Shown here: positions 4,115 through 48,627 of the stretch, one piece after another | Numbering within the stretch: the stretch's first letter is position 1 | Layout: each line of letters opens with the position of its first letter | Assembly (NCBI GenBank): GCA_964187785.1 | Contig: OZ076409.1 | Location: 16,308,001 to 16,372,000, forward strand | From: Amphiscolops sp. MND2022 | Lineage: Eukaryota | DNA: 64,000 nt | Reading direction: 5' to 3' | Notes under the pieces: model-generated | What the model saw: the letters and a program-made list of their open reading frames with translations, nothing else | What the model was told of the DNA's origin: nothing | Databases searched by the model: none | Program-made: the position numbers and the translations under genes

Positions 4115-4689
4115 TTTTTGTCAGAAATGTGGTTTAACTTCGGTGACAGTTTTGCAAAAGGGGTCAAATTGAAAAGATAGCAAAAAACGGACAACGCCAT
4201 TAGAAAGAGCGTCCAAAAAAAACCCATGCTGAAATTTTCGCCGCCATCACTTGAATTTTCATTGAGTTATGTCATTTTTACTATTTTCACAAAATGTGGT
4301 TTAACTTCGGTGACAGTTTTGCAAAAGGGGTCAAAATGAACAGATAGCAAAAAACGGACAACGGCACTGGAAAGAGGGCCCAAAATTACCCCTAAAACGT
4401 GTTTTTCACACTCCTGAGTCGACTTTTGATAATACATGGAATTTCATTTTTAAGCTTACTAATTTATGCTTTTCAGCATACATTTTCGTAATAGAGTCAA
4501 AATTTTGCTTTCTCACAATTTTTCTGGAATATTTTTGTTTCATCAGATGTCAATAACTTGAAACGTCGTCTTTTCATGAGAATTTCTCCTCAAAACAAGT
4601 TGTTGGCTGGTAATGGTAAGTCCGTACCGCAGATAGGACTCTCGCGCTCCAAAAATTGACTCTTTGCTTTTAGCCTAATTGTTGTGATA

Positions 4690-6123
4690 CTGCGGTAGCA
4701 GCAATTATTTGACCAAATTCATTCTCTCTCGCATCTGCTGAGGCAGGGACGATTATCTCACTTGAAAGAATGCCTAATTTCCTTACATTGGACTTTATAA
4801 TACCTTACTCCAAAGAAGAAATTACTAATCCTTCTCTAAAGCTTGTTACTTACAAAAGCTTTCTTTGCTCGTTACTTAAATGTTTACCTAGTGACGCTGT
4901 TAAACGCGTGACCTGCATGAAATTGCACGTGTACAAACATGCGCCGCACGAAAAGAAACTTGAGAGCGTCAAAGTTATCGGTCCAATTTCATTACAAAAC
5001 GAGTTTAATTCCATTATTTCTGATGGAATTTTGTTCAAAAATCGCAAGATTTATGCTCTACAAAACCACGATGTTACGTCCAATGCTTACCCCAAGCAAT
5101 TTACGATCAAATTTCGTATTTTACCACACTTCTTTCCTGATACCGATGTTATTTCGGCTTGCAATTTGAAAGATTTCAAACTTTCAAAGTTACGACACCA
5201 ATTAGAGAAACTTTCTGAGGAAATTGAAACCTACACAGGCATTTGTTATGCGGATGTGGAAATCCAGGACGAAGCCCAATTACAACAGCTCATTTCATGG
5301 AATGAAACCAGCTTTTTGAACAAATACTATCTAGAAGAAATTCCATTTAAATGCCAAATTCAAACATTACTACAATGCGATTTCTGCAGACAAAAGAAGC
5401 TCCAGTTTTTGGGGCACCATGTACGCCAATGCAAAGCCAAAAAGACACAATTAGAACCAGAATCTGAGGAAGATAGCATCTCAACCACGAAAACAAATGA
5501 AGAAAAAGAACTAGAAGCCACAGATGCAAACAAGAATAACACAGAACATACTTTCTATATTGATTTAGAAAAATGCCAAATTCGAAACATACATGACATG
5601 GACGAACTCCATAAAGGATTTAGCAAGCTTCTTGCTTTACAGGAATGCAAGCCTGTGAATGTCTTGAATGACAACAATGTAGTGAAAAACCAACTACGAC
5701 ATGTGAAGAATATTACTGAAGAAAAACAGCGGAAGCTTTTCAAACAACAAAACAGATGGGGAAGTCCTTCATCAGACGTCCCAATCAAGAACTTCTCAGA
5801 GTTTTGTGAACTCCGGGGAAAGCTAGATGTGTTCTACGACTCAACAAAAGGCGAAGAAACCCTTTACCTGATGAACCTATCCAAGAAAGTGACCCACATT
5901 TTCAAAAAGAAACAACAACCAAACTAACAAAACTACATTATACTAATTTTCAAACTTTGATTTCCATGTTAAATCAAAACTCTCATATTATACAATCATC
6001 ACCAACCAAGTCTTTCATTTACTCAATACTATAAGTATGCTAAGTTATTCATACTCAACACTTTAGTATTAATGTAAAGACTATTTGATTTATAAAGGCA
6101 AATTTCCAAATACATTCTTTAAA
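4690..6123 (+). mobile_element. Family B ORF1-only (HAL1-like) non-autonomous element, copy B1 (1.43 kb)
   Basis: 18-bp TSD AGCCTAATTGTTGTGATA (4672-4689 and from 6124); single ORF; no RT; 3' end ATTCTTTAAA. Confidence 0.9.
4770..5927 (+). CDS. Family B ORF1-like protein (385 aa) with extra C-terminal domain
   Basis: YPK..IKFR.LPHF, YTG, CDFC-X9-H-HVRQ-C align with the ORF1s of A/C/D/E. Confidence 0.85.
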   Translation: MPNFLTLDFIIPYSKEEITNPSLKLVTYKSFLCSLLKCLPSDAVKRVTCMKLHVYKHAPHEKKLESVKVIGPISLQNEFNSIISDGILFKNRKIYALQNHDVTSNAYPKQFTIKFRILPHFFPDTDVISACNLKDFKLSKLRHQLEKLSEEIETYTGICYADVEIQDEAQLQQLISWNETSFLNKYYLEEIPFKCQIQTLLQCDFCRQKKLQFLGHHVRQCKAKKTQLEPESEEDSISTTKTNEEKELEATDANKNNTEHTFYIDLEKCQIRNIHDMDELHKGFSKLLALQECKPVNVLNDNNVVKNQLRHVKNITEEKQRKLFKQQNRWGSPSSDVPIKNFSEFCELRGKLDVFYDSTKGEETLYLMNLSKKVTHIFKKKQQPN

Positions 6124-6124
6124 A

Positions 6125-6259
6125 GCCTAATTGTTGTGATAAACTTATTAAATAGGTAAGTATTCCAACCCTATTGATAAGTTTTATTTGAAAGCAGACT
6201 GCGAAAGTGGTCTGCTGCCCAATTTTTGAACAAGGAACAAGCTAGTCTGCACTAACTTA
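6125..6259 (+). ncRNA. SL RNA sequence downstream of B1
   Basis: Same SL sequence. Confidence 0.75.
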
Positions 6260-6350
6260 AAAGTTACGCGTATTTTGACCGAGAAAATTTTCGTATCATT
6301 GTACGTAATTTTGTTGTTAAGCATATAAAGCTATTGATTCTACAATGATC

Positions 6351-6469
6351 GGCTACGACCATACCATGTTGAATGCACCGGTTCTCGTCCGATCACCGAA
6401 GTTAAACAACATAGGGCCTGGTTAGTACTTGGATGGGAGACCGCTTGGGAACACCAGGTGTTGTAGCCT
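6351..6469 (+). rRNA. 5S rRNA: 5S rRNA
   Basis: Same sequence. Confidence 0.98.
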
Positions 6470-7045
6470 TTTTTGTCAGAAATGTGGTTTAACTTCGGTG
6501 ACAGTTTTGCAAAAGGGGTCAAATTGAAAAGATAGCAAAAAACGGACAACGCCATTAGAAAGAGCGTCCAAAAAAACCCCCATGCTGAAATTTTCGCCGC
6601 CATCACTTGAATTTTCATTGAGTTATGTCATTTTTACTATTTTCACAAAATGTGGTTTAACTTCGGTGACAGTTTTGCAAAAGGGGTCAAAATGAACAGA
6701 TAGCAAAAAACGGACAACGGCACTGGAAAGAGGGCCCAAAATTACCCCTAAAACGTGTTTTTCACACTCCTGAGTCGACTTTTGATAATACATGGAATTT
6801 CATTTTTAAGCTTACTAATTTATGCTTTTCAGCATACATTTTCGTAATAGAGTCAAAATTTTGCTTTCTCACAATTTTTCTGGAATATTTTTGTTTCATC
6901 AGATGTCAATAACTTGAAACGTCGTCTTTTCATGAGAATTTCTCCTCAAAACAAGTTGTTGGCTGGTAATGGTAAGTCCGTACCGCAGATAGGACTCTCG
7001 CGCTCCAAAAATTGACTCTTTGCTTTTAGCCTAATTGTTGTGATA

Positions 7046-9027
7046 CGGCGTTACTCTGTCAGCCTGCAAACTTTGTTTGCACAGCGCCATCTTGCAAATT
7101 TTGCAGCAAAAGTTGCAAAAGTAATGACTAATTTGAACACGAGTGAGCTTGATCAACATCATAATGAAAATGTTGAGCAAAATTGTTACAAAAATGCAGT
7201 TATTTCCTTGTCGAAATCGAACTCAAATATGGACAAATTACCAATTATTATCAACTTTGCCTTACCACTGACATCTGAAATGTTCAAAAACAGCAAATTA
7301 CTGGATTCAATGTTTGTGGAAGCTGTTATGGCCGTCAAAAACCGACTTAACTCCAATGAAATTACCATCTTCAAAACTACAATTTTACGCAACAAAGGCA
7401 ATTTGAAGTGTATTACTGTGATCATTCCTTACAAACTTGAAAATGCAGCTTCCTCTCTTATTCACGAGGGCATTACTCTTCGCAATCGGAAAATACGGCC
7501 TTATTCTGTCAATTATTCCAACCCGAACAACAATGTCTATCCAAAAAGATTACCAATATCTTTCCGAAACCTACCACACTTTCTGACGGATGAGGATATT
7601 TTGAGTAGCTGTGGTCTTCAAAACTTCAAATTTAGTAGCAAAATTTTTCATCAACAACGACGACTTCCTGATAGCAGCCTTTTTTATACAGGAGAGGCAA
7701 GAATTACAGTTTTAATTGACAATGAGAATGAGGAAAGTTTACTACAAAACTGGGCCAATAATGCATATGACAAAATGTTTAGTTCCAGTGGCATTTTTTT
7801 CAAATGTTGCTGTATCCCACTCCTCGAATGCTCTTTATGCGTCAATGAGAACCTTCCCAGTGCTCATCAACAATCAAGATGCCCAAAACAACTATCAGAC
7901 GAACAGCAAATACAGAAAAACAGTGAATCTCAGAACCAGAAGTTAACAACTGACTACGTTATGGAAACTGCAGAAACAGAGCCAATGTCTAATGAACCTG
8001 AACTGTCAGATTCAGATGATGCTGAACCAATCTCAAAGGCACCAAAGCAGACCGATGATGGTACTGAAACCGAATGCAACAACAACGTGGCAGAAACTGA
8101 ACAACCATGCATTAACAACTCAAAGAAAGATACCATTCCTATGCAAAAACCTAAACTAATGCATCGCTCAACTGAATGGAAATCCTCAACAGACCTTGCC
8201 CGAAATCAAGCAGATGACCAACAGTCAACGGCAAAGCATGGATATCATGAATACCCATTCTTTTTGGAAAAGAAACAAAACAAAATACTGGCACCCGAAA
8301 CTATTTTCAACGAAATACCTCCTATAAAAGAACATGTGATCAAAACCCAACAAACTTCTGGCTACATCAATACACTAGACAAGGAAAAGAAAATTCAAAG
8401 GACCTTTTCACTCGTACAACCACTGAAGAAAGAAAAACTCGAAGATCTTTTATCTGAATCAAACTGGAAACATTCTGACTCTAACACTATTTTAACTTCT
8501 CATTTTGAATTTTACTCATTGATCCGGAAGTTTGATCCATTCTATGATGCTACAAACCACCAAATTTACACTATTAATCTGGAGAATAAAATTGTACAAG
8601 TTTTCACTGCAGTTGAAAACTTATACAATGAAAACAAAAACTAAACTGAAAAATTTCGGACCTTTTTGACTGGAACTTTAAAGTTCTAAATCTCTACAAT
8701 ACCATCATCAATCAACCCAATTCCCAATTCTTTTCGAGCACTAGTTGTTCGCAACCTGTATGCAAAAAACGGGTTTTGAAAACAAACTCCTTCCAGGAGC
8801 AAACATCTTTTTTTCATACATTCTCCAAACTACATTATACTAACTTCATACCTAAAAAAAAACATTCCCATTTTGGCGCTTTCTCAAAAATGCCATAACC
8901 AAGCATCTTCATCTACATACTTCAGCTTTTTCAACACTTCAGTTACTCATAAACTCATTTTATACCTATACCTTAGACTTCATTACTTTTTACTTGTAAA
9001 TTCTCAGTTTTCAATAAATTCTTTAAA
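7046..9027 (+). mobile_element. Family C ORF1-only non-autonomous element, copy C1 (1.98 kb)
   Basis: 18-bp TSD AGCCTAATTGTTGTGATA; single ORF; 3' end AATAAATTCTTTAAA. Confidence 0.9.
7124..8644 (+). CDS. Family C ORF1-like protein (506 aa from first ATG) with extra C-terminal domain
   Basis: YPKRLPISFRNLPHF, FYTGEARI, CSLC-X8-H-QQSR-C; the ORF-track start at 7040 is a GTG inside the TSD. Confidence 0.85.
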   Translation: MTNLNTSELDQHHNENVEQNCYKNAVISLSKSNSNMDKLPIIINFALPLTSEMFKNSKLLDSMFVEAVMAVKNRLNSNEITIFKTTILRNKGNLKCITVIIPYKLENAASSLIHEGITLRNRKIRPYSVNYSNPNNNVYPKRLPISFRNLPHFLTDEDILSSCGLQNFKFSSKIFHQQRRLPDSSLFYTGEARITVLIDNENEESLLQNWANNAYDKMFSSSGIFFKCCCIPLLECSLCVNENLPSAHQQSRCPKQLSDEQQIQKNSESQNQKLTTDYVMETAETEPMSNEPELSDSDDAEPISKAPKQTDDGTETECNNNVAETEQPCINNSKKDTIPMQKPKLMHRSTEWKSSTDLARNQADDQQSTAKHGYHEYPFFLEKKQNKILAPETIFNEIPPIKEHVIKTQQTSGYINTLDKEKKIQRTFSLVQPLKKEKLEDLLSESNWKHSDSNTILTSHFEFYSLIRKFDPFYDATNHQIYTINLENKIVQVFTAVENLYNENKN

Positions 9028-9028
9028 A

Positions 9029-9373: not shown

Positions 9374-10163
9374 TTTTTGTCAGAAATGTGGTTTAACTTC
9401 GGTGACAGTTTTGCAAAAGGGGTCAAATTGAAAAGATAGCAAAAAACGGACAACGCCATTAGAAAGAGCGTCCAAAAAAACCCCCATGCTGAAATTTTCG
9501 CCGCCATCACTTGAATTTTCATTGAGTTATGTCATTTTTACTATTTTCACAAAATGTGGTTTAACTTCGGTGACAGTTTTGCAAAAGGGGTCAAAATGAA
9601 CAGATAGCAAAAAACGGACAACGGCACTGGAAAGAGGGCCCAAAATTACCCCTAAAACGTGTTTTTCACACTCCTGAGTCGACTTTTGATAATACATGGA
9701 ATTTCATTTTTAAGCTTACTAATTTATGCTTTTCAGCATACATTTTCGTAATAGAGTCAAAATTTTGCTTTCTCACAATTTTTCTGGAATATTTTTGTTT
9801 CATCAGATGTCAATAACTTGAAACGTCGTCTTTTCATGAGAATTTCTCCTCAAAACAAGTTGTTGGCTGGTAATGGTAAGTCCGTACCGCAGATAGGACT
9901 CTCGCGCTCCAAAAATTGACTCTTTGCTTTTAGCCTAATTGTTGTTCACGCGTCGGTTGGTTAGTTATCTTTGACTTTTGACTTCTGATTGTGAAAAACT
10001 TTTTTGACGAGTTTTTAACACATAGTACCGCTAAAACTCTAGAAGTTTAACGAAAAAATTGTTTATTTGGGTTTATACCCCTTTGCACTTTACCCCCTCT
10101 GGGTTTATACCCCCCCCCTTGGGTTTATACTCCCTTTTGGATAGAGGATAGGAAAACGACTTC

Positions 10164-11495
10164 ATGATTCTTGACGACGATGTTGCTTCTGGGAATGTGG
10201 ACGTAACAAAAATGCCGATGGATGGTCACGACAATACTGAATATATTCCACCTATTGAAAGCCTCAGCCTTGTTCAATTGTCGGAGCAATCGCAATCTGG
10301 GTCTCCGTCACTTACACCACCACCAACATCTTCTCTACAGAACATACAATCGGCAATAAACACGCAATTATACAGCGCTGTTGCAGGTGCCAACACTCCA
10401 CCATCTCGCACGACAGCAATAATTAAAATGAAAATCATTCCACCATTACAAAAACAACACTTCACAACCAAGGACAACTTCACTACTGCAACCAATCAAT
10501 GTTTTTCAGCAATTTTACGTTGCTTTCCACCTACATACAGACAACAGCTTACTATTTCAAAATCATTTACAATTGTCGGGACAAGACATTTGCATTCAAT
10601 TAATGTAGTGGCGCCTGTCACAGCCCAGGACATTGTATCAAAATTGCAAACAACAGGAATATCAATGCTTGGCAAAACTGTATTTCCATCGACAGACAAC
10701 TTTCTCACTAATTTACCTGGACTCTATCCACGATACACTCAAGTGAGACTTCTACATGCACCAGCACAATGCGATGACGAGACCTTAACAGAACTATTAC
10801 ATCTTCCGGCAGATACGACAATCATAGGATTCAAACGTCAGACAGACACGATTGATGGTATGTCCTTTTTCAATGGCAAAATAGCATGCACGATAAAAAT
10901 CAACAATACAACTCATGAAGAAGAACTACGACAATGGTCGTTGGATCAACATGAAAATCCCACAATGATTTGGGAGGAGATTCCTATCTTTGCATTTATT
11001 CCCTCACTTCACAATTGCACTTTCTGTAAACAACATAACAAACCTCACTTTGGACATGACATTGCCTGGTGCAAACATGCAAAAGCACATCCAACGACTC
11101 CACCATCACCTCCTCTACCACAACAGACATCAACTACAACTTCGCAGATGCCTCTGCCTCCTCCTTCTTCTTCTGCTACTCCATCTGTTATTGCGCCAAC
11201 TCCTCCTACTTTGGTTAACAACAACTTGGGTTTAGCTGACGTACCTGTTACAACGACTGATGATTGGCAACCTGTAACTAAGAAGACTTTCCCTAAACAC
11301 AGTTTGGTTAGAACGAGGTCTGTTATCAAGGCGAAAAGACCAAAACACCCGAGCCCTGTAACTGAAGTTAACCCCAATTTGACAGAACCTACGATGACGG
11401 CACCGTTCCTTCCGACTACACCCATTTACAATTCATTTGACAGCAAGCGGTATTCTAAATCTTCCAGGTCTAAACATGATAGTGTTCAGCCTTAA
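10164..11495 (+). CDS. Family A ORF1 (443 aa), nucleic-acid-binding protein with CCHC-like knuckle and Pro/Thr-rich tail
   Basis: Lies upstream of and overlaps ORF2; CTFC-X9-H-DIAW-C; homologous to D and E ORF1. Confidence 0.88.
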   Translation: MILDDDVASGNVDVTKMPMDGHDNTEYIPPIESLSLVQLSEQSQSGSPSLTPPPTSSLQNIQSAINTQLYSAVAGANTPPSRTTAIIKMKIIPPLQKQHFTTKDNFTTATNQCFSAILRCFPPTYRQQLTISKSFTIVGTRHLHSINVVAPVTAQDIVSKLQTTGISMLGKTVFPSTDNFLTNLPGLYPRYTQVRLLHAPAQCDDETLTELLHLPADTTIIGFKRQTDTIDGMSFFNGKIACTIKINNTTHEEELRQWSLDQHENPTMIWEEIPIFAFIPSLHNCTFCKQHNKPHFGHDIAWCKHAKAHPTTPPSPPLPQQTSTTTSQMPLPPPSSSATPSVIAPTPPTLVNNNLGLADVPVTTTDDWQPVTKKTFPKHSLVRTRSVIKAKRPKHPSPVTEVNPNLTEPTMTAPFLPTTPIYNSFDSKRYSKSSRSKHDSVQP

Positions 11496-14400
11496 TTGTA
11501 GAGGACTGAAGGATCCTCTTCGCCTTGCCATAACTCTGACTGCTTGTCAGCGTCATGGTGTGAAAAATTTTGTTCTTTTCCTACAAGAAACTAAGATTTC
11601 TGAATTTTCTATCAATCATAGAAAACTACTTACACAACACCATCTCTCGTACTGCATGGTTCCTGCCTCTGATACTGCAGGTGGATTGGTGACAATTTTT
11701 CCGTCTTCTTTCCACATAACTTACCGTTTTAACAATGAATCCATGCTCCTATTGCGTTTTCAAGAATATAATATCACTTTTAGCAACTGTTATGTCAATC
11801 CGCTTGATTTTCATCTGGAAAAGCTTAATCATGGTTTCCAACAGCTTTCTCTTCTATCTTCTAGTTCTCACATACTTGGTGGAGATTTTAACTGTTTATC
11901 AACCCGTGCTGACACATCTAATGTTAATATTCGAAGTAATGATTTCCGCTTACTTCGTTTTCGAAAACGTATGAATCTTATGCACCTGCTGGATGTCACA
12001 CCATGTGCTCCAGCCTCGGCTGCACATCTGTTCACACACTATGATAAAAGGTATAATACATTTAGTCGTTTAGACTACTTTTTTACATCGAGTGTTGACT
12101 TCTCTCTCGAAACTGAAGTCATTCCTTTTTCGGATCACAAGTTAATTAAGCTTTGTGAAGCGGCATCTTTTACTCCAGCAAACAGTCATTGGAAATTAAA
12201 TGACAACATTCTGCAGTATCACCATGCAGTACGGGAGGTTTTGGTGAGTTCTATTGCATCCCGGTCTACGGATTCAGAGTGTATCCTATCGAACTATGAT
12301 GTCATTAAAAATCTTGTTAGGGATAAACTCCGTATCTTTTGTATCCAGAATCATAGACGTAATCTTTTTGAAGAAAATCACCTGAAAGAACTAATACTTG
12401 ATGCAGAGAAATATCTACAAATTTTTGGCGTAGATTCCAAAACTATTTCTCGTCTTTCAGATTTAAATAAAAAATTGATGGAACTCCAGCACCAGAATGC
12501 TCGTAAATGCCTTAAACAGGTGAAAATGTTTTATGTTGATGCCAATCATGGTGATCCTCAAGTTATTAAAAAACACCTTTCAAATATGAGAAAATCCGTA
12601 CATATTTCTCAAATACAAGACGACAATGGTGAGGTCTTGACTACTGATGAGCAGATTTTTGAAGCTTTTCATATGCATTACTCAGATCGTTTTTCCATTC
12701 CGCAGGTCAATATCAATAATGATTCCCATGTCAAGCAGCTGCAAGATGACATTATTGGTACTTTTTGTAGTGTTAAGAGATCTGATATTGAAAATATTCG
12801 CACTCTAACCAGAGACCGGGATATGATTAGTGAACAAGAAGTTATTAATGCCATTACCAAATTGAATTCTGAAAGTGCTCCTGGTCCTGATGGCCTCACT
12901 TCCAACTTTTATAAAGCTCATCAGGAAGTTCTGAGTCCTCTACTCTGCAGGCTGTTTAACCAGATGGTTACTGATGGTTGGATGCCGCTATCTTTCTCCA
13001 GAGCCATTATAAAACTGATTCCTAAAAAACCCAACGCCAATCGTGTTGAAGATTTTCGTCCCATCAGTCTTATTAATACAGACCAAAAAATACTCTCTCA
13101 TATTTTGTCGGAACGAGTTCGCATTCCTGTTGATAAGCTTATTGGTCCCCACCAATCTGCTTATCTTCCTGGGCGTCACATACACTCTTCTTTATTGAAA
13201 GTCTCCTTAAACTTGGAAACCATGCCGTCAAATAATTCTCTCATCGCTATTGATTTTAGCAAAGCCTTTGATAAACTAAGTCGAACATTTATCTTTGCGT
13301 TATTAGAAAAAATTGGCTTGCACGAAAACACAGTCAAATTGATTCGCATCATGTATATGCATAATATTGCCTATCTTGACATCAATGGTCAACTCTCTCA
13401 ACCTGTTCTTATGGAAAATGGAGTTAGGCAAGGCTGCCCTTTATCCGCGCTCATTTTTATTCTAGGCATTGAACCCCTTCTTCATGCAATTCAGCACTCC
13501 TTCAACATTAGATCGGATATGCCGTTTAAAATTATCTCGTATGCGGATGATCTTACTTGTGGTATTCACACTGATAATATTCAAGATCTTTTTGATATCA
13601 TTGATACATTTTCTGGCGTTACGAATTTATCTGTTAATCAATCTAAAACTGAAATTCTTACATTGAGTAGTCTTCGTCCTCCTCTCCAATCTTGTGACGT
13701 TGTTAAAATACTGGGTGTTCACTTTAGTTTGGGCAACTCTGCTAGACCTTTCTCTGACTTCATGAACTTTGCGCAACGAAGTGGTCAGTATTGTAACAAA
13801 TACAATACTCTAATAGCTCGTGCGCGAAATATTCATACATTTGTTATGCAAAAATTAGTTCATGAAATTCGCCATCTTTATGTCCTAAGACCTCAATTAG
13901 ACAAAATTGATAGTATTTTCATTGATGCTATTTGGCTTGGCCGCAAACACAATCTAGGTAAATTTATTCTCCAGAGACCATGGTCGGCGATGGGTATTGG
14001 TCTTCGGAATTTCCGTCAAACTATTGTTTCTTCCAAAATTATCGACTGCTTCAACTTTCTCTACGAAAACAATTTGCCCGATAATCTTAAACTGTTACTC
14101 CAATCTAGGTTTTTTAGAAATCTTAAATCCTTGTGTCGCACATTTAAATGCTCCATTTCCTTTCCAAACTCCACCACCTGTACTCTTTCTATTGATGACC
14201 GTCAACTTGTGATTTCCACCCCTCTTCCCACTAAAAAAATTTATCATTTTCTTACAGACCGGTCAACTTCGGCAGCTTTTTGCCGAATCTCTAGTATGGC
14301 AGAGAAATTATCTGTTCCTGCTTTTTCTATCTTTTCCTTCATCCGTCACTTGTGGAAGCATCCCTCGTAGGCTGCTTTTGAGAAAAATTATTTATATCTG

Positions 14401-14727
14401 TTTTTCCTTAATTGCTACTTAGAGAAAACCAAAAAACAAGATTTGGGCTTAGTGTTTTCAGCTCATTGCTGTTTTTGTGGTGTTGAAGACGAAACCTTCT
14501 CACATCTTATTACTGAATGTCAGCATATTCCATCTCTCAATTTCTTTAAAACTCCTAGTGATTGCTGTCTAGATTTTCAAAACATGAATGCAATTTACCC
14601 TTTCAAACGTCTGATAGCTCTCCTAATTTCCTCATGGAGCGAAGATCCGCTCAGATTCTCTAAATATTTTTTGAATTGTGTCTCCTTAAGGCATCCAACC
14701 ATTCTTAACCATCAGGCTGTAACGTAA
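11476..14727 (+). pseudogene. Family A ORF2 (APE-RT, about 1083 aa) with premature TAG at 14368-14370
   Basis: SLNCRGL, LQET, GGDFN, SDH, YADD motifs; TAT in A1/A3 is TAG here, removing the C-terminal Cys/His finger. Confidence 0.9.
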
Positions 14728-14880
14728 CTAAGTTCAATTATATTTATATCTTGCAACCAATGAACCATACACTTACTTTGATTAGCTACTGAATTGTCTG
14801 AATTATGAACTTGGTCATGACCTACGCTATTTGATTGATTCATTTGTTCCTACTGATTTACTGTAATTAATTCTTTAAAA

Positions 14881-21077: not shown

Positions 21078-21653
21078 TTTTTGTCAGAAATGTGGTTTAA
21101 CTTCGGTGACAGTTTTGCAAAAGGGGTCAAATTGAAAAGATAGCAAAAAACGGACAACGCCATTAGAAAGAGCGTCCAAAAAAACCCCCATGCTGAAATT
21201 TTCGCCGCCATCACTTGAATTTTCATTGAGTTATGTCATTTTTACTATTTTCACAAAATGTGGTTTAACTTCGGTGACAGTTTTGCAAAAGGGGTCAAAA
21301 TGAACAGATAGCAAAAAACGGACAACGGCACTGGAAAGAGGGCCCAAAATTACCCCTAAAACGTGTTTTTCACACTCCTGAGTCGACTTTTGATAATACA
21401 TGGAATTTCATTTTTAAGCTTACTAATTTATGCTTTTCAGCATACATTTTCGTAATAGAGTCAAAATTTTGCTTTCTCACAATTTTTCTGGAATATTTTT
21501 GTTTCATCAGATGTCAATAACTTGAAACGTCGTCTTTTCATGAGAATTTCTCCTCAAAACAAGTTGTTGGCTGGTAATGGTAAGTCCGTACCGCAGATAG
21601 GACTCTCGCGCTCCAAAAATTGACTCTTTGCTTTTAGCCTAATTGTTGTGATA

Positions 21654-23635
21654 CGGCGTTACTCTGTCAGCCTGCAAACTTTGTTTGCACAGCGCCATCT
21701 TGCAAATTTTGCAGCAAAAGTTGCAAAAGTAATGACTAATTTGAACACGAGTGAGCTTGATCAACATCATAATGAAAATGTTGAGCAAAATTGTTACAAA
21801 AATGCAGTTATTTCCTTGTCGAAATCGAACTCAAATATGGACAAATTACCAATTATTATCAATTTTGCGTTACCACTGACATCTGAAATGTTCAAAAACA
21901 GCAAATTACTGGATTCAATATTTGTGGAAGCTGTTATGGCCGTCAAAAACCGACTTAACTCCAATGAAATTACCATCTTCAAAACTACAATTTTACGCAA
22001 CAAAGGCAATTTGAAGTGTATTACTGTGATCATTCCTTACAAACTTGAAAATGCAGCTTCCTCTCTTATTCACGAGGGCATTACTCTTCGCAATCGGAAA
22101 ATACGGCCTTATTCTGTCAATTATTCCAACCCGAACAACAATGTCTATCCAAAAAGATTACCAATATCTTTCCGAAACCTACCACACTTTCTGACGGATG
22201 AGGATATTTTGAGTAGCTGTGGTCTTCAAAACTTCAAATTTAGTAGCAAAATTTTTCATCAACAACGACGACTTCCTGATAGCAGCCTTTTTTATACAGG
22301 AGAGGCAAGAATTACAGTTTTAATTGACAATGAGAATGAGGAAAGTTTACTACAAAACTGGGCCAATAATGCATATGACAAAATGTTTAGTACCAGTGGC
22401 ATTTTCTTCAAATGTTGCTGTATCCCACTTCTCGAATGCTCTTTATGCGTCAATGAGAACCTTCCCAGTGCTCATCAACAATCAAGATGCCCAAAACAAC
22501 TATCAGACGAACAGCAAATACAGAAAAACAGTGAATCTCAGAACCAGAAGTTAACAACTGACTACGTTATGGAAACTGCAGAAACAGAACCAATGTCTAA
22601 TGAACCTGAACTGTCAGATTAAGATGATGCTGAACCAATCTCAAAGGCGCCAAAGCAGACCGATGATGGTACTGAAACCGAATGCAATAACAACGTGGCA
22701 GAAACTGAACAATCATGCATTAACAACTCAAAGAAACATACCATTCCTATGCAAAAACCTAAACTAATGCATCGCTCAACTGAATGGGAATCCTCAACAG
22801 ACCTTGCCCGAAATCAAGCAGATGACCAACAGTCAACGGCAAAGCATGGATATCATGAATACCCATTCTTTTTGGAAAAGAAACAAAACAAAATACTGGC
22901 ACCCGAAACTATTTTCAACGAAATACCTCCTATAAAAGAACATGTGATCAAAACCCAACAAACTTCTGGCTACATCAATACACTAGACAAGGAAAAGAAA
23001 ATTCAAAGGACCTTTTCACTCGTACAACCACTGAAGAAAGAAAAACTCGAAGATCTTTTATCTGAATCAAACTGGAAACATTCTGACTCTAACACTATTT
23101 TAACTTCTCATTTTGAATTTTACTCATTGATCCGGAAGTTTGATCCATTCTATGATGCTACAAACCACCAAATTTACACTATTAATCTGGAGAATAAAAT
23201 TGTACAAGTTTTCACTGCAGTTGAAAACTTATACAATGAAAACAAAAACTAAACCGAAAAAATTCGGACCTTTTGGAAAGGAACTTTAAAGTTCTAAATC
23301 TCTACAATACCATCATCAATCAACCCAATTCCCAATTCTTTTCGAGCACTAGTTGTTCGCAACCTGTATGCAAAAAACGGGTTTTGAGAACAAACTCCTT
23401 CCAGGAGCAAACATCTTTTTTTCATACATTCTCCAAACTACATTATACTAATTTCATACCAAAAAAAAAACATTCCCATTTTGGCGCTTTCTCAAAAATG
23501 CCATAACCAAGCATCTTCATCTACATACTTCAGCTTTTTCAACACTTCAGTTACTCATATACTCATTTTATACATATACCTTAGACTTCATTACTTTTTA
23601 CTTGTAAATTCTCAGTTTTCAATAAATTCTTTAAA
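21654..23635 (+). mobile_element. Family C element, copy C2
   Basis: Same junctions and TSD as C1. Confidence 0.9.
21732..23252 (+). pseudogene. Family C ORF with nonsense TCA>TAA at 22620-22622
   Basis: Comparison with C1. Confidence 0.85.
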
Positions 23636-23636
23636 A

Positions 23637-23771
23637 GCCTAATTGTTGTGATAAACATATTAAATAGGTAAGTATTCCAACCCTATTGATAAGTTTTATT
23701 TGAAAGCAGACTGCGAAAGTGGTCTGCTGCCCAATTTTTGAACAAGGAACAAGCTAGTCTGCACTAACTTA
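23637..23771 (+). ncRNA. SL RNA sequence downstream of C2
   Basis: Same SL sequence, one exon substitution. Confidence 0.75.
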
Positions 23772-23861
23772 AAGTTACGCGTATTTTGACCGAGAAAATT
23801 TTCGTATCATTGTACGTAATTTTGTTGTTAAGCATATAAAGCTATTGATTCTACAATGATC

Positions 23862-23980
23862 GGCTACGACCATACCATGTTGAATGCACCGGTTCTCGTC
23901 CGATCACCGAAGTTAAACAACATAGGGCCTGGTTAGTACTTGGATGGGAGACCGCTTGGGAACACCAGGTGTTGTAGCCT
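23862..23980 (+). rRNA. 5S rRNA: 5S rRNA
   Basis: Same sequence. Confidence 0.98.
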
Positions 23981-24556
23981 TTTTTGTCAGAAATGTGGTT
24001 TAACTTCGGTGACAGTTTTGCATAAGGGGTCAAATTGAAAAGATAGCAAAAAACGGACAACGCCATTAGAAAGAGCGTCCAAAAAAACCCCCATGCTGAA
24101 ATTTTCGCCGCCATCACTTGAATTTTCATTGAGTTATGTCATTTTTACTATTTTCACAAAATGTGGTTTAACTTCGGTGACAGTTTTGCAAAAGGGGTCA
24201 AAATGAACAGATAGCAAAAAACGGACAACGGCACTGGAAAGAGGGCCCAAAATTACCCCTAAAACGTGTTTTTCACACTCCTGAGTCGACTTTTGATAAT
24301 ACATGGAATTTCATTTTTAAGCTTACTAATTTATGCTTTTCAGCATACATTTTCGTAATAGAGTCAAAATTTTGCTTTCTCACAATTTTTCTGGAATATT
24401 TTTGTTTCATCAGATGTCAATAACTTGAAACGTCGTCTTTTCATGAGACTTTCTCCTCAAAACAAGTTGTTGGCTGGTAATGGTAAGTCCGTACCGCAGA
24501 TACGACTCTCGCGCTCCAAAAATTGACTCTTTGCTTTTAGCCTAATTGTTGTGATA

Positions 24557-26542
24557 CGGCGTTACTCTGTCAGCCTGCAAACTTTGTTTGCACAGCGCCA
24601 TCTTGCAAATTTTGCAGCAAAAGTTGCAAAAGTAATGACTAATTTGAACACGAGTGAGCTTGATCAACATCATAATGAAAATGTTGAGCAAAATTGTTAC
24701 AAAAATGCAGTTATTTCCTTGTCGAAATCGAACTCAAATATGGACAAATTACCAATTATTATCAACTTTGCCTTACCACTGACATCTGAAATGTTCAAAA
24801 ACAGCAAATTACTGGATTCAATGTTTGTGGAAGCTGTTATGGCCGTCAAAAACCGACTTAACTCCAATGAAATTACCATCTTCAAAACTACAATTTTACG
24901 CAACAAAGGCAATTTGAAGTGTATTACTGTGATCATTCCTTACAAACTTGAAAATGCAGCTTCCTCTCTTATTCACGAGGGCATTACTCTTCGCAATCGG
25001 AAAATACGGCCTTATTCTGTCAATTATTCCAACCCGAACAACAATGTCTATCCAAAAAGATTACCAATATCTTTCCGAAACCTACCACACTTTCTGACGG
25101 ATGAGGATATTTTGAGTAGCTGTGGTCTTCAAAACTTCAAATTTAGTAGCAAAATTTTTCATCAACAACGACGACTTCCTGATAGCAGCCTTTTTTATAC
25201 AGGAGAGGCAAGAATTACAGTTTTAATTGACAATGAGAATGAGGAAAGTTTACTACAAAACTGGGCCAATAATGCATATGACAAAATGTTTAGTTCCAGT
25301 GGCATTTTTTTCAAATGTTGCTGTATCCCACTCCTCGAATGCTCTTTATGCGTCAATGAGAACCTTCCCAGTGCTCATCAACAATCAAGATGCCCAAAAC
25401 AACTATCAGACGAACAGCAAATACAGAAAAACAGTGAATCTCAGAACCAGAAGTTAACAACTGACTACGTTATGGAAACTGCAGAAACAGAGCCAATGTC
25501 TAATGAACCTGAACTGTCAGATTCAGATGATGCTGAACCAATCTCAAAGGCACCAAAGCAGACCGATGATGGTACTGAAACCGAATGCAACAACAACGTG
25601 GCAGAAACTGAACAACCATGCATTAACAACTCAAAGAAAGATACCATTCCTATGCAAAAACCTAAACTAATGCATCGCTCAACTGAATGGAAATCCTCAA
25701 CAGACCTTGCCCGAAATCAAGCAGATGACCAACAGTCAACGGCAAAGCATGGATATCATGAATACCCATTCTTTTTGGAAAAGAAACAAAACAAAATACT
25801 GGCACCCGAAACTATTTTCAACGAAATACCTCCTATAAAAGAACATGTGATCAAAACCCAACAAACTTCTGGCTACATCAATACACTAGACAAGGAAAAG
25901 AAAATTCAAAGGACCTTTTCACTCGTACAACCACTGAAGAAAGAAAAACTCGAAGATCTTTTATCTGAATCAAACTGGAAACATTCTGACTCTAACACTA
26001 TTTTAACTTCTCATTTTGAATTTTACTCATTGATCCGGAAGTTTGATCCATTCTATGATGCTACAAACCACCAAATTTACACTATTAATCTGGAGAATAA
26101 AATTGTACAAGTTTTCACTGCAGTTGAAAACTTATACAATGAAAACAAAAACTAAACTGAAAAATTTCGGACCTTTTTGACTGGAACTTTAAAGTTCTAA
26201 ATCTCTACAATACCATCATCAATCAACCCAATTCCCAATTCTTTTCGAGCACTAGTTGTTTGCAACCTGTATGCAAAAAACGGGTTTTGAAAACAAACTC
26301 CTTCCAGGAGCAAACATCTTTTTTTCATACATTCTCCAAACTACATTATACTAACTTCATACCTAAAAAAAAAAAAACATTCCCATTTTGGCGCTTTCTC
26401 AAAAATGCCATAACCAAGCATCTTCATCTACATACTTCAGCTTTTTCAACACTTCAGTTACTCATATACTCATTTTATACCTATACCTTAGACTTCATTA
26501 CTTTTTACTTGTAAATTCTCAGTTTTCAATAAATTCTTTAAA
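24557..26542 (+). mobile_element. Family C element, copy C3
   Basis: Same junctions and TSD as C1. Confidence 0.9.
24635..26155 (+). CDS. Family C ORF1-like protein, intact
   Basis: Same protein as C1. Confidence 0.85.
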   Translation: MTNLNTSELDQHHNENVEQNCYKNAVISLSKSNSNMDKLPIIINFALPLTSEMFKNSKLLDSMFVEAVMAVKNRLNSNEITIFKTTILRNKGNLKCITVIIPYKLENAASSLIHEGITLRNRKIRPYSVNYSNPNNNVYPKRLPISFRNLPHFLTDEDILSSCGLQNFKFSSKIFHQQRRLPDSSLFYTGEARITVLIDNENEESLLQNWANNAYDKMFSSSGIFFKCCCIPLLECSLCVNENLPSAHQQSRCPKQLSDEQQIQKNSESQNQKLTTDYVMETAETEPMSNEPELSDSDDAEPISKAPKQTDDGTETECNNNVAETEQPCINNSKKDTIPMQKPKLMHRSTEWKSSTDLARNQADDQQSTAKHGYHEYPFFLEKKQNKILAPETIFNEIPPIKEHVIKTQQTSGYINTLDKEKKIQRTFSLVQPLKKEKLEDLLSESNWKHSDSNTILTSHFEFYSLIRKFDPFYDATNHQIYTINLENKIVQVFTAVENLYNENKN

Positions 26543-26543
26543 A

Positions 26544-26678
26544 GCCTAATTGTTGTGATAAACTTATTAAATAGGTAAGTATTCCAACCCTATTGATAAG
26601 TTTTATTTGAAAGCAGACTGCGAAAGTGGTCTGCTGCCCAATTTTTGAACAAGGAACAAGCTAGTCTGCACTAACTTA
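26544..26678 (+). ncRNA. SL RNA sequence downstream of C3
   Basis: Same SL sequence. Confidence 0.75.
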
Positions 26679-26769
26679 AAAGTTACGCGTATTTTGACCG
26701 AGAAAATTTTCGTATCATTGTACGTAATTTTGTTGTTAAGCATATAAAGCTATTGATTCTACAATGATC

Positions 26770-26888
26770 GGCTACGACCATACCATGTTGAATGCACCGG
26801 TTCTCGTCCGATCACCGAAGTTAAACAACATAGGGCCTGGTTAGTACTTGGATGGGAGACCGCTTGGGAACACCAGGTGTTGTAGCCT
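26770..26888 (+). rRNA. 5S rRNA: 5S rRNA
   Basis: Same sequence. Confidence 0.98.
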
Positions 26889-27464
26889 TTTTTGTCAGAA
26901 ATGTGGTTTAACTTCGGTGACAGTTTTGCAAAAGGGGTCAAATTGAAAAGATAGCAAAAAACGGACAACGCCATTAGAAAGAGCGTCCAAAAAAACCCCC
27001 ATGCTGAAATTTTCGCCGCCATCACTTGAATTTTCATTGAGTTATGTCATTTTTACTATTTTCACAAAATGTGGTTTAACTTCGGTGACAGTTTTGCAAA
27101 AGGGGTCAAAATGAACAGATAGCAAAAAACGGACAACGGCACTGGAAAGAGGGCCCAAAATTACCCCTAAAACGTGTTTTTCACACTCCTGAGTCGACTT
27201 TTGATAATACATGGAATTTCATTTTTAAGCTTACTAATTTATGCTTTTCAGCATACATTTTCGTAATAGAGTCAAAATTTTGCTTTCTCACAATTTTTCC
27301 GGAATATTTTTGTTTCATCAGATGTCAATAACTTGAAACGTCGTCTTTTCATGAGAATTTCTCCTCAAAACAAGTTGTCGGCTGGTAATGGTAAGTCCGT
27401 ACCGCAGATACGAGTCTCGCGCTCCAAAAATTGACTCTTTGCTTTTAGCCTAATTGTTGTGATA

Positions 27465-29444
27465 CGGCGTTACTCTGTCAGCCTGCAAACTTTGTTTGCA
27501 CAGCGCCATCTTGCAAATTTTGCAGCAAAAGTTGCAAAAGTAATGACTAATTTGAACACGAGTGAGCTTGATCAACATCATAATGAAAATGTTGAGCAAA
27601 ATTGTTACAAAAATGCAGTTACTTCCTTGTCGAAATCGAACTCAAATATGGACAAATTACCAATTATTATCAACTTTGCCTTACCACTGACATCTGAAAT
27701 GTTCAAAAACAGCAAATTACTGGATTCAATGTTTGTGGAAGCTGTTATGGCCGTCAAAAACCGACTTAACTCCAATGAAATTACCATCTTCAAAACTACA
27801 ATTTTACGCAACAAAGGCAATTTGAAGTGTATTACTGTGATCATTCCTTACAAACTTGAAAATGCAGCTTCCTCTCTTATTCACGAGGGCATTACTCTTC
27901 GCAATCGGAAAATACGGCCTTATTCTGTCAATTATTCCAACCCGAACAACAATGTCTATCCAAAAAGATTACCAATATCTTTCCGAAACCTACCACACTT
28001 TCTGACGGATGAGGATATTTTGAGTAGCTGTGGTCTTCAAAACTTCAAATTTAGTAGCAAAATTTTTCATCAACAACGACGACTTCCTGATAGCAGCCTT
28101 TTTTATACAGGAGAGGCAAGAATTACAGTTTTAATTGACAATGAGAATGAGGAAAGTTTACTACAAAACTGGGCCAATAATGCATATGACAAAATGTTTA
28201 GTTCCAGTGGCATTTTTTTCAAATGTTGCTGTATCCCACTCCTCGAATGCTCTTTATGCGTCAATGAGAACCTTCCCAGTGCTCATCAACAATCAAGATG
28301 CCCAAAACAACTATCAGACGAACAGCAAATACAGAAAAACAGTGAATCTCAGAACCAGAAGTTAACAACTGACTACGTTATGGAAACTGCAGAAACAGAG
28401 CCAATGTCTAATGAACCTGAACTGTCAGATTCAGATGATGCTGAACCAATCTCAAAGGCACCAAAGCAGACCGATGATGGTACTGAAACCGAATGCAACA
28501 ACAACGTGGCAGAAACTGAACAACCATGCATTAACAACTCAAAGAAAGATACAATTCCTATGCAAAAACTCAAACTAATGCATCGCTCAACTGAATGGAA
28601 ATCCTCAACAGACCTTGCCCGAAATCAAGCAGATGACCAACAGTCAACGGCAAAGCATGGATATCATGAATACCCATTCTTTTTGGAAAAGAAACAAAAC
28701 AAAATACTGGCACCCGAAACTATTTTCAACGAAATACCTCCTATAAAAGAACATGTGATCAAAACCCAACAAACTTCTGGCTACATCAATACACTAGACA
28801 AGGAAAAGAAAATTCAAAGGACCTTTTCACTCGTACAACCACTGAAGAAAGAAAAACTCGAAGATCTTTTATCTGAATCAAACTGGAAACATTCTGACTC
28901 TAACACTATTTTAACTTCTCATTTTGAATTTTACTCATTGATCCGGAAGTTTGATCCATTCTATGATGCTACAAACCACCAAATTTACACTATTAATCTG
29001 GAGAATAAAATTGTACAAGTTTTCACTGCAGTTGAAAACTTATACAATGAAAACAAAAACTAAACTGAAAAATTTCGGACCTTTTTGACTGGAACTTTAA
29101 AGTTCTAAATCTCTACAATACCATCATCAATCAACCCAATTCCCAATTCTTTTCGAGCACTAGTTGTTCGCAACCTGTATGCAAAAAACGGGTTTTGAAA
29201 ACAAACTCCTTCCAGGAGCAAACATCTTTTTTTCATACATTCTCCAAACTTCATTATACTAACTTCATACCAAAAAAAACATTCCCATTTTGGCGCTTTC
29301 TCAAAAATGCCATAACCAAGCATCTTCATCTACATACTTCAGCTTTTTCAACACTTCAGTTACTCATATACTCATTTTATACCTATACCTTAGACTTCAT
29401 TACTTTTTACTTGTAAATTCTCAGTTTTCAATAAATTCTTTAAA
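27465..29444 (+). mobile_element. Family C element, copy C4
   Basis: Same junctions and TSD as C1. Confidence 0.9.
27543..29063 (+). CDS. Family C ORF1-like protein, intact
   Basis: Near-identical to C1. Confidence 0.85.
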   Translation: MTNLNTSELDQHHNENVEQNCYKNAVTSLSKSNSNMDKLPIIINFALPLTSEMFKNSKLLDSMFVEAVMAVKNRLNSNEITIFKTTILRNKGNLKCITVIIPYKLENAASSLIHEGITLRNRKIRPYSVNYSNPNNNVYPKRLPISFRNLPHFLTDEDILSSCGLQNFKFSSKIFHQQRRLPDSSLFYTGEARITVLIDNENEESLLQNWANNAYDKMFSSSGIFFKCCCIPLLECSLCVNENLPSAHQQSRCPKQLSDEQQIQKNSESQNQKLTTDYVMETAETEPMSNEPELSDSDDAEPISKAPKQTDDGTETECNNNVAETEQPCINNSKKDTIPMQKLKLMHRSTEWKSSTDLARNQADDQQSTAKHGYHEYPFFLEKKQNKILAPETIFNEIPPIKEHVIKTQQTSGYINTLDKEKKIQRTFSLVQPLKKEKLEDLLSESNWKHSDSNTILTSHFEFYSLIRKFDPFYDATNHQIYTINLENKIVQVFTAVENLYNENKN

Positions 29445-29445
29445 A

Positions 29446-29580
29446 GCCTAATTGTTGTGATAAACTTATTAAATAGGTAAGTATTCCAACCCTATTGATA
29501 AGTTTTATTTGAAAGCACACTGCGAAAGTGGTCTGCTGCCCAATTTTTGAACAAGGAACAAGCTAGTCTGCACTAACTTA
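29446..29580 (+). ncRNA. SL RNA sequence downstream of C4
   Basis: Same SL sequence, one substitution in hairpin II. Confidence 0.75.
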
Positions 29581-29671
29581 AAAGTTACGCGTATTTTGAC
29601 CGAGAAAATTTTCGTATCATTGTACGTAATTTTGTTGTTAAGCATATAAAGCTATTGATTCTACAATGATC

Positions 29672-29790
29672 GGCTACGACCATACCATTTTGAATGCACC
29701 GGTTCTCGTCCGATCACCGAAGTTAAACAACATAGGGCCTGGTTAGTACTTGGATGGGAGACCGCTTGGGAACACCAGGTGTTGTAGCCT
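29672..29790 (+). rRNA. 5S rRNA: 5S rRNA (one G>T variant)
   Basis: Same sequence except CCATTTTGAA. Confidence 0.97.
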
Positions 29791-30365
29791 TTTTTGTCAG
29801 AAATGTGGTTTAACTTCGGTGACAGTTTTGCAAAAGGGGTCAAATTGAAAAGATAGCAAAAAACGGACAACGCCATTAGAAAGAGCGTCCAAAAAACCCC
29901 CATGCTGAAATTTTCGCCGCCATCACTTGAATTTTCATTGAGTTATGTCATTTTTACTATTTTCACAAAATGTGGTTTAACTTCGGTGACAGTTTTGCAA
30001 AAGGTGTCAAAATGAACAGATAGCAAAAAACGGACAACGGCACTGGAAAGAGGGCCCAAAATTACCCCTAAAACGTGTTTTTCACACTCCTGAGTCGACT
30101 TTTGATAATACATGGAATTTCATTTTTAAGCTTACTAATTTATGCTTTTCAGCATACATTTTCGTAATAGAGTCAAAATTTTGCTTTCTCACAATTTTTC
30201 TGGAATATTTTTGTTTCATCAGATGTCAATAACTTGAAACGTCGTCTTTTCATGAGAATTTCTCCTCAAAACAAGTTGTTGGCTGGTAATGGTAAGTCCG
30301 TACCGCAGATAGGAGTCTCGCGCTCCAAAAATTGACTCTTTGCTTTTAGCCTAATTGTTGTGATA

Positions 30366-32346
30366 CGGCGTTACTCTGTCAGCCTGCAAACTTTGTTTGC
30401 ACAGCGCCATCTTGCAAATTTTGCAGCAAAAGTTGCAAAAGTAATGACTAATTTGAACACGAGTGAGCTTGATCAACATCATAATGAAAATGTTGAGCAA
30501 AATTGTTACAAAAATGCAGTTATTTCCTTGTCGAAATCGAACTCAAATATGGACAAATTACCAATTATTATCAACTTTGCCTTACCACTGACATCTGAAA
30601 TGTTCAAAAACAGCAAATTACTGGATTCAATGTTTGTGGAAGCTGTTATGGCCGTCAAAAACCGACTTAACTCCAATGAAATTACCATCTTCAAAACTAC
30701 AATTTTACGCAACAAAGGCAATTTGAAGTGTATTACTGTGATCATTCCTTACAAACTTGAAAATGCAGCTTCCTCTCTTATTCACGAGGGCATTACTCTT
30801 CGCAATCGGAAAATACGGCCTTATTCTGTCAATTATTCCAACCCGAACAACAATGTCTATCCAAAAAGATTACCAATATCTTTCCGAAACCTACCACACT
30901 TTCTGACGGATGAGGATATTTTGAGTAGCTGTGGTCTTCAAAACTTCAAATTTAGTAGCAAAATTTTTCATCAACAACGACGACTTCCTGATAGCAGCCT
31001 TTTTTATACAGGAGAGGCAAGAATTACAGTTTTAATTGACAATTAGAATGAGGAAAGTTTACTACAAAACTGGGCCAATAATGCATATGACAAAATGTTT
31101 AGTTCCAGTGGCATTTTTTTCAAATGTTGCTGTATCCCACTTCTCGAATGCTCTTTATGCGTCAATGAGAACCTTCCCAGTGCTCATCAACAATCAAGAT
31201 GCCCAAAACAACTATCAGACGAACAGCAAATACAGAAAAACAGTGAATCTCAGAACCAGAAGTTAACAACTGACTACGTTATGGAAACTGCAGAAACAGA
31301 GCCAATGTCTAATGAACCTGAACTGTCAGATTCAGATGATGCTGAACCAATCTCAAAGGCGCCAAAGCAGACCGATGATGGTACTGAAACCGAATGCAAT
31401 AACAACGTGGCAGAAACTGAACAACCATGCATTAACAACTCAAAGAAAGATACCATTCCTATGCAAAAACCTAAACTAATACATCGCTCAACTGAATGGG
31501 AATCCTCAACAGACCTTGCCCGAAATCAAGCAGATGACCAACAGTCAACGGCAAAGCATGGATATCATGAATACCCATTCTTTTTGGAAAAGAAACAAAA
31601 CAAAATACTGGCACCCGAAACTATTTTCAACGAAATACCTCCTATAAAAGAACATGTGATCAAAACCCAACAAACTTCTGGCTACATCAATACACTAGAC
31701 AAGGAAAAGAAAATTCAAAGGACCTTTTCACTCGTACAACCACTGAAGAAAGAAAAACTCGAAGATCTTTTATCTGAATCAAACTGGAAACATTCTGACT
31801 CTAACACTATTTTAACTTCTCATTTTGAATTTTACTCATTGATCCGGAAGTTTGATCCATTCTATGATGCTACAAACCACCAAATTTACACTATTAATCT
31901 GGAGAATAAAATTGTACAAGTTTTCACTGCAGTTGAAAACTTATACAATGAAAACAAAAACTAAACTGAAAAATTTCGGACCTTTTTGACTGGAACTTTA
32001 AAGTTCTAAATCTCTACAATACCATCATCAATCAACCCAATTCCCAATTCTTTTCGAGCACTAGTTGTTCGCAACCTGTATGCAAAAAACGGGTTTTGAG
32101 AACAAACTCCTTCCAGGAGCAAACATCTTTTTTTCATACATTCTCCAAACTTCATTATACTAACTTCATACCAAAAAAAAACATTCCCATTTTGGCGCTT
32201 TCTCAAAAATGTCATAACCAAGCATCTTCATCTACATACTTCAGCTTTTTCAACACTTCAGTTACTCATATACTCATTTTATACATATACCTTAGACTTC
32301 ATTACTTTTTACTTGTAAATTCTCAGTTTTCAATAAATTCTTTAAA
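30366..32346 (+). mobile_element. Family C element, copy C5
   Basis: Same junctions and TSD as C1. Confidence 0.9.
30444..31964 (+). pseudogene. Family C ORF with nonsense GAG>TAG at 31044-31046
   Basis: Comparison with C1. Confidence 0.85.
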
Positions 32347-32347
32347 A

Positions 32348-32482
32348 GCCTAATTGTTGTGATAAACTTATTAAATAGGTAAGTATTCCAACCCTATTGA
32401 TAAGTTTTATTTGAAAGCAGACTGCGAAAGTGGTCTGCTGCCCAATTTTTGAACAAGGAACAAGCTAGTCTGCACTAACTTA
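32348..32482 (+). ncRNA. SL RNA sequence downstream of C5
   Basis: Same SL sequence. Confidence 0.75.
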
Positions 32483-32573
32483 AAAGTTACGCGTATTTTG
32501 ACCGAGAAAATTTTCGTATCATTGTACGTAATTTTGTTGTTAAGCATATAAAGCTATTGATTCTACAATGATC

Positions 32574-32692
32574 GGCTACGACCATACCATGTTGAATGCA
32601 CCGGTTCTCGTCCGATCACCGAAGTTAAACAACATAGGGCCTGGTTAGTACTTGGATGGGAGACCGCTTGGGAACACCAGGTGTTGTAGCCT
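32574..32692 (+). rRNA. 5S rRNA: 5S rRNA
   Basis: Same sequence. Confidence 0.98.
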
Positions 32693-33268
32693 TTTTTGTC
32701 AGAAATGTGGTTTAACTTCGGTGACAGTTTTGCAAAAGGGGTCAAATTGAAAAGATAGCAAAAAACGGACAACGCCATTAGAAAGAGCGTCCAAAAAAAA
32801 CCCCATGCTGAAATTTTCGCCGCCATCACTTGAATTTTCATTGAGTTATGTCATTTTTACTATTTTCACAAAATGTGGTTTAACTTCGGTGACAGTTTTG
32901 CAAAAGGGGTCAAAATGAACAGATAGCAAAAAACGGACAACGGCACTGGAAAGAGGGCCCAAAATTACCCCTAAAACGTGTTTTTCACACTCCTGAGTCG
33001 ACTTTTGATAATACATGGAATTTCATTTTTAAGCTTACTAATTTATGCTTTTCAGCATACATTTTCGTAATAGAGTCAAAATTTTGCTTTCTCACAATTT
33101 TTCTGGAATATTTTTGTTTCATCAGATGTCAATAACTTGAAACGTCGTCTTTTCATGAGAATTTCTCCTCAAAACAAGTTGTTGGCTGGTAATGGTAAGT
33201 CCGTACCGCAGATAGGAGTCTCGCGCTCCAAAAATTGACTCTTTGCTTTTAGCCTAATTGTTGTGATA

Positions 33269-35249: not shown

Positions 35250-35250
35250 A

Positions 35251-37600: not shown

Positions 37601-37601
37601 A

Positions 37602-48400: not shown

Positions 48401-48401
48401 A

Positions 48402-48536: not shown

Positions 48537-48627
48537 AAAGTTACGCGTATTTTGACCGAGAAAATTTTCGTATCATTGTACGTAATTTTGTTGTTAAGCA
48601 TATAAAGCTATTGATTCTACAATGATC

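Follow-up and report, generated by a model that had tools for sequence, protein, structure and literature searches.

A conserved C-terminal domain in ORF1-only retrotransposons of spliced-leader gene arrays in the acoel Amphiscolops

A 64,000-nt stretch of the Amphiscolops sp. MND2022 genome (contig OZ076409.1, positions 16,308,001 to 16,372,000; the whole stretch is hereafter the window) is a tandem array of spliced-leader (SL) RNA and 5S rRNA genes interrupted by non-LTR retrotransposons. Two of the families present, B and C, encode only the protein of the first open reading frame (ORF1p), which ends in a domain found in none of the autonomous lineages sampled. This C-terminal domain (CTD) spans 8249..8644 in family C (131 aa, with a folded core of approximately the first 120 aa, delimited by homology to the modelled B domain) and 5547..5927 in family B (126 aa); all window features are on the forward strand. 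The CTD is a real conserved domain that is predicted to fold independently. We hypothesize, with a probability of about 0.4, that it could be a protein-binding adaptor giving the ORF1-only ribonucleoprotein access to the copying machinery of autonomous elements.

The initial annotation, which had aligned the ends of the B and C proteins, quoted residues that are indeed present in both intervals, and the alignment is significant against shuffled controls: the local score of 97 was reached by 0 of 5000 shuffles (31.7 ± 5.5), with 23/83 identical positions and a BLASTP E of 8e-9. CTD subgroups also recover one another by profile search (E 2.5e-5 to 7e-18). Comparison with the ORF1 and ORF2 pieces of the autonomous-type window families A, D and E stayed at chance level (all 18 tests |z| < 1.5), and hhalign against profiles of the APE, reverse transcriptase (RT) and post-RT regions of ORF2, one of them built from 18 sequences (E 0.31–0.5), gave E values of 0.25–0.59 overall, in agreement with the annotated lack of an ORF2 match. 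The CTD as a fragment of ORF2p was rejected for want of a profile match to related ORF2s, a comparison made at the sequence level only.

AlphaFold2 modeling of the B domain from a 14-row alignment, the structure check that had been recommended, predicted an alpha/beta fold of seven strands and four helices (pLDDT 87, pTM 0.80). The full-length model shows the same fold after a disordered linker (linker pLDDT < 50), and its whole-protein pTM of 0.54 suggests that the CTD is not packed on the N-terminal part of ORF1p. Pfam and fold searches returned no clear match to a known family or solved fold, and the CTD may represent an unclassified fold; the HutX/ChuX fold was among the candidates weighed for it.

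To extend the analysis across the genome, searches were made with five different CTDs and two N-terminal regions; the counts below cover the fetched loci plus the window, are not de-duplicated, and describe a sample picked from search matches in one genome. At least ten ORF1-only lineages carry the CTD, nearly all in or derived from SL/5S arrays; beyond B and C they include F, G, K/H, I, J, N, O, Q, L062 and diverged B- and C-like copies. The annotated restriction of the domain to B and C is thus correct for the window and incorrect genome-wide. Among 62 CTD matches, 46 are closed by an SL start or a tail without ORF2, 14 are unclosed with no ORF2 within 1.5 kb, and two have an APE domain downstream. 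One of the latter is a broken, out-of-frame junction of a G copy with a D-like element; in the other an SL start lies between CTD and APE, which belong to separate elements. Conversely, the CTD was detected in 0 of 47 ORF1s followed by APE, even at E < 1. At L032:4158-8741 (reverse strand), outside the SL arrays, tandem chimeras consist of an L085-like ORF1 fused in frame with the knuckle and CTD of the K type, and L038:3261-3797 (reverse strand) holds a single, probably 5'-truncated copy with an open 179-aa frame of linker and CTD alone.

An ORF1 tree was built from 46 N-terminal regions, one per 88% cluster, excluding fragments of fewer than 140 profile positions. All 15 CTD-bearing rows form a single group (support 99/97), as the proposed common ancestry of B and C predicts, and the group retains an SH-aLRT value of 93 after 12 decayed or partial rows were dropped and five database rows added. 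It adjoins autonomous elements that insert in U5 snRNA genes; a long branch parts the two from the families that target SL genes or lie beside U1, U2 and tRNA genes. Forcing the CTD and SL-autonomous rows together was rejected by the approximately unbiased (AU) test (p-AU 3e-8, for a grouping chosen after tree inspection), which rules out descent of the CTD-clade ORF1s from A, D or E. Internal deletion of one autonomous parent was also rejected for the CTD elements, as some tails match families of the SL-autonomous group, to which the ORF1 does not belong; a single parent, now extinct, may still have existed. Two CTD subclades are deeply split. In the CTD's own tree the B side forms a clade (92/92), and J is placed otherwise than in the N-terminal tree, hinting at shuffling among the parasites.

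The CTD was likely gained once, on the branch that lost ORF2. Because the root of the tree is not resolved, this is the simplest reading and is unproven; the parasite-specific gain put forward by the initial annotation is consistent with the distribution. The same lack of a root, the deep subclade split and the scope of the survey (one genome, with limited candidates scored per search) would accommodate a CTD older than ORF2 loss, inherited from a lost or unsampled autonomous lineage and simply retained. We consider this very improbable, given that the domain is absent from all autonomous lineages sampled (SL, U1, U2, U5 and tRNA neighbours) and that 32 ORF1 relatives from databases lack it too (lowest E 0.011 when those 32 sequences were searched).

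The U5 inserters (L074, L075, L077, L080, L125, L133) are autonomous L1-like elements that interrupt U5 snRNA genes within their loop region. Units of ~680 bp make up a tandem U5 array at G000:C6:35.07-35.13 Mb, and L123:1300-1520 contains an insert of ~200 bp that is flanked by duplicated U5 loop motifs and resembles a 5'-truncated insertion. Related autonomous lineages sit beside U2, U1 and tRNA genes (L092, L094, L088, L089), and within this one genome the autonomous radiation covers at least five small-RNA targets.

Between diverged lineages the CTD yielded dN/dS values of 0.27 (0.14–0.50), 0.22 (0.11–0.44) and 0.32 (0.16–0.55); judged from these coding changes, it is under purifying selection. 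A further four pairs, too short or too recent to be informative, gave 0.36, 0.47, 0.70 and 1.4, and four others were saturated. The CTD is less conserved than the region of RNA recognition motifs (RRMs) in 23 of 28 pairs, which are not independent, with a mean identity of 26% vs 39%.

That region, with two RRM-like domains, occupies 7241..7819 of the C element by alignment to B, whose N-terminal model resembles tandem RRMs (Foldseek E 4e-4). It is followed by a CCHC zinc knuckle (7829..7882) and an acidic linker of 122 aa without a strong basic cluster (7883..8248). No Pfam family scored above cut-off for the B and C proteins, including Transposase_22 of the type II, L1-type ORF1p. Their RRM-RRM-CCHC order is that of type I ORF1p, in which by definition one or more RRMs are immediately followed by a CCHC knuckle (PMC4120745). 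Autonomous ORF1s end in a disordered tail of 115–145 aa, which in 13 of 16 carries a lone W and, after it, basic residues. Tails of A, D and E resemble the CTD as little as first annotated, but they do have this motif in common. The ORF1-only elements retain the acidic part, and the CTD stands in place of the helpers' basic, W-motif tail. Such W-plus-basic tails occur in the ORF1s at 10152-11495, 39848-41146 and 60657-61748 of the window and at loci L083-L093; the tails of the U5 group have an ESLG-like motif instead.

The knuckle was present in 16 of 16 autonomous ORF1s examined and is absent in lineages I, N and Q, a sub-lineage in which the CTD outlasted it. This loss would suit a CTD acting as an accessory RNA-binding module that packages the element's own RNA, as the L1 ORF1p C-terminal domain assists its RRM; knuckles package mRNA in SART1 (PMC4120745), and a conserved R-x-K patch lies before the D-V-F-Y strand of the CTD. 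However, the net charge of the domain varies from -8 to +6 across families and is near zero or negative in most, tails are freely exchanged between CTD lineages (see below), and RNA-binding folds gave only weak, non-exclusive matches in the fold searches, none of which stands out. The L1 ORF1p C-terminal domain was not among the matches listed in the Pfam or fold searches. Taken together, we regard an RNA-binding role as unlikely.

Their RNA ends tie the ORF1-only elements to SL-targeting autonomous families, from which these ends derive. The F tail is identical to that of L083 (43/43 nt), and the C, O, I and M tails match autonomous family L086 (z 6.5–12.5, 0/200 shuffles each). A shared 3' tail is an established sign of a helper–parasite pair (PMC3747384), and the C tail (8979..9028; z 6.5, 0/200 shuffles) is likely a helper-recognition signal. 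It matches L086 and not A, D or E, whose ORF2 products, the pull-down partners originally suggested, are consequently the wrong ones for C. Eight of the 13 tails tested had no clear partner (best z for B 2.4). Read by eye, 5' ends are common to N and L056, J and L084, and G and A.

One tail can recur in different CTD lineages (in K and N, in B and J), and tails are swapped within families: family F copies with the same CTD occur with two different tails. At L026, L042 and L043, the end of one C copy is L084-like, and F copies bear a tail of the B/K type. No stable fold was seen in the tails of CTD elements. The exchange may arise by template switching or by recombination in the array, we infer selection for it, and the 3' tail probably picks the helper. 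That the elements themselves retrotranspose is indicated by direct C–C junctions, by dispersed family I copies whose flanks differ, and by an F copy that is 5'-truncated and sits at an SL start (L043). Three dispersed I copies (L048:3830, L049:3484, L067:3162) start with SL nt 1-17 in non-SL DNA, and only 3-4 matching bases follow; as a matching 3' duplication is missing there, what looks like a 17-bp duplication is carried by the RNA itself, which implies that transcription begins at the SL start.

Conserved CTD columns are mostly hydrophobic, with one invariant Asn and no catalytic-looking set of invariant residues; such columns and the range of charge are not those of an enzyme or of a domain that binds nucleic acids in general. 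The lack of a catalytic set, the variable charge, the faster divergence and the persistence beyond the knuckle point to a binding module, and helper machinery is favoured as its target because the CTD occurs only where ORF2 is missing. Since the ORF1 comes from outside the helpers' lineage, native contacts between ORF1p and helper may be poor. In the adaptor mechanism we propose, the elements would be transcribed from the SL promoter and their RRMs would coat the element's own RNA; the choice of the helper ORF2p that copies this RNA would lie with the 3' tail. Tethered by the acidic linker, the CTD would bind a surface that helpers have in common, either on ORF2p or on the particle, and would thereby counteract a helper's bias towards its own RNA. 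ORF1-only elements have been proposed to act by multimerising with helper proteins (PMC5786205). A CTD that associates with itself, raising avidity or building parasite-only particles and perhaps poisoning those of the helper, is in our view improbable.

The position of the CTD, in place of the autonomous W and basic cluster that may be a localisation signal, would also fit binding of a host factor, whether for nuclear import, SL-gene chromatin tethering, ribosome docking or anti-silencing. HeT-A Gag directs its own localisation, and that of its helpers, to telomeres (PMC5537684), and fast divergence is compatible with host conflict. Yet the dispersal of family I outside the arrays indicates loose targeting, helpers in the same arrays meet the same host without a CTD, and the searches found no host gene or host-like homologue of the domain. 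A host-factor role is rather unlikely, but this and RNA binding are close rivals of the adaptor. Several observations weigh against the adaptor itself. The same CTD is found with two tails in F, and the K/N and B/J tails are common to distant CTDs; a CTD that keeps its identity with different tails cannot set helper specificity. SART1 needs no more than a 3' UTR to mobilise an RNA in trans (PMC7265360), and no extra fold has been described for HeT-A and HAL1, which succeed nevertheless. Of seven within-lineage CTD estimates of dN/dS beyond the three given first, three have intervals that span 1 and one (N vs L058) is 1.4, the pairs being short or very recent, and relaxed constraint could explain the faster divergence of the CTD.

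The array itself consists of 904-bp SL/5S units (24 Rfam 5S matches), such as the target unit at 6125..7028 with its 5S gene at 6351-6469, and its SL sequence agrees with the published leader of the acoel Symsagittifera roscoffensis (PMC9911081). The unit at 52018-53051 measures 1034 bp, diverging just past the SL splice donor. Sixteen non-LTR elements interrupt the SL exon in the window, five autonomous-type (three A, one D, one E; APE and RT by Pfam) and 11 ORF1-only (two B, nine C), with an unbroken ORF in 2/2 B and 5/9 C copies. The B element at 4673..6124 (1.45 kb; ATG 4770, stop 5927) and the C element at 7029..9028 (2.0 kb; its 5' end is SL nt 1-17, and a full SL start comes after it) are flanked by SL starts and lack ORF2. 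A second B copy with an intact ORF lies at 36154..37601 (CTD 37025-37408). Five more C copies, starting at 21637, 24540, 27448, 30349 and 33252 (21637..35250), all carry the CTD, two with intact ORFs; three others start at 46402, 53052 and 56862 (46402..58861), the 53052 copy having a frameshift within the CTD. Family A, with ORF1 and an APE/RT ORF2, is found at 9933..14880, 1-2865 and 15784-20732, family D at 39404..44594, with a tail weakly like the B type, and family E at 60670..64000, extending past the window end; none has a CTD. ORF2 is broken in every A, D and E copy whose ORF2 starts inside the window (9933-20732, 39404-44594, 60670-64000), which may reflect assembly error; intact ORF2s occur at L083-L086 and L093.

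The helpers A, D and E and their kin encode APE and RT in an L1-like ORF2 (Pfam), nearest to human L1 ORF2p (E 6e-130 vs 1e-49 for R2), and insert sequence-specifically in multicopy RNA genes (SL and U5, with neighbours of U1, U2 and tRNA genes). They thereby resemble Tx1-clade elements (Keno and relatives), which are APE-type and insert in multicopy small-RNA genes including U2, U5 and 5S (PMC4494074), a likeness of domain content and targets; an SL-exon target and ORF1-only derivatives were not met in the available portion of that paper. The CTD elements retain a LINE-derived ORF1 without ORF2 and are thus ORF1-only LINEs, of which HeT-A, HAL1 (half-L1) and Ag-Sponge were already known (PMC5786205, PMC5537684). 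HAL1 and Ag-Sponge likewise encode only ORF1p and need helper ORF2p, and are described as internal-deletion derivatives of their own helper (PMC5786205). The B/C clade differs in having an ORF1 from outside the helpers' lineage, RNA ends from several helpers and an added domain, although HAL1 may have an added domain as well. HAL1 proper has an L1-type (type II) ORF1p, as opposed to RRM-RRM-CCHC. HeT-A of Drosophila is also ORF1-only, shares one niche with autonomous partners and encodes a protein under selection (PMC5537684), but is a telomeric Jockey-clade element that serves its host with targeting within Gag, while the CTD elements comprise at least ten lineages in SL genes. SL genes are also the insertion sites of NeSL and SLACS. 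The latter is of the restriction-like endonuclease type. NeSL belongs to a restriction-like endonuclease clade (PMC4640811), whereas the helpers here use APE. In stringent SINE/LINE pairs the parasite copies the 3' end of its helper (PMC3747384), as do the CTD elements, which unlike SINEs encode a protein, swap tails between helpers and have tails without a stable fold. Literature searches outside subscription papers and Repbase (PMC8869645, PMC4640811 and PMC5605252 being drawn on in part) found no account of these acoel elements, none of ORF1-only LINEs inserted in SL genes and none of ORF1-only LINEs that have an additional domain.

How non-autonomous elements evade the preference of LINEs for their own RNA has been explained mainly through RNA tricks such as tails, or the SRP link of Alu. 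Our results address the question of why ORF1-only elements retain any protein: a discrete, deletable domain accompanies ORF2 loss across a clade, and tails name the natural parasite–helper pairs F–L083 and C–L086, which makes the question directly testable. If true, a trans-recruiting adaptor would be of interest to builders of site-specific retrotransposon gene-insertion tools. On a broader and more doubtful reading, the CTD would be a protein-coded piracy module, a new fold capturing the RT of helper families unrelated to the parasite, with the helper selected by exchangeable tails; it may have enabled a single clade to switch both helper lineage and target and to diversify into more than ten families.
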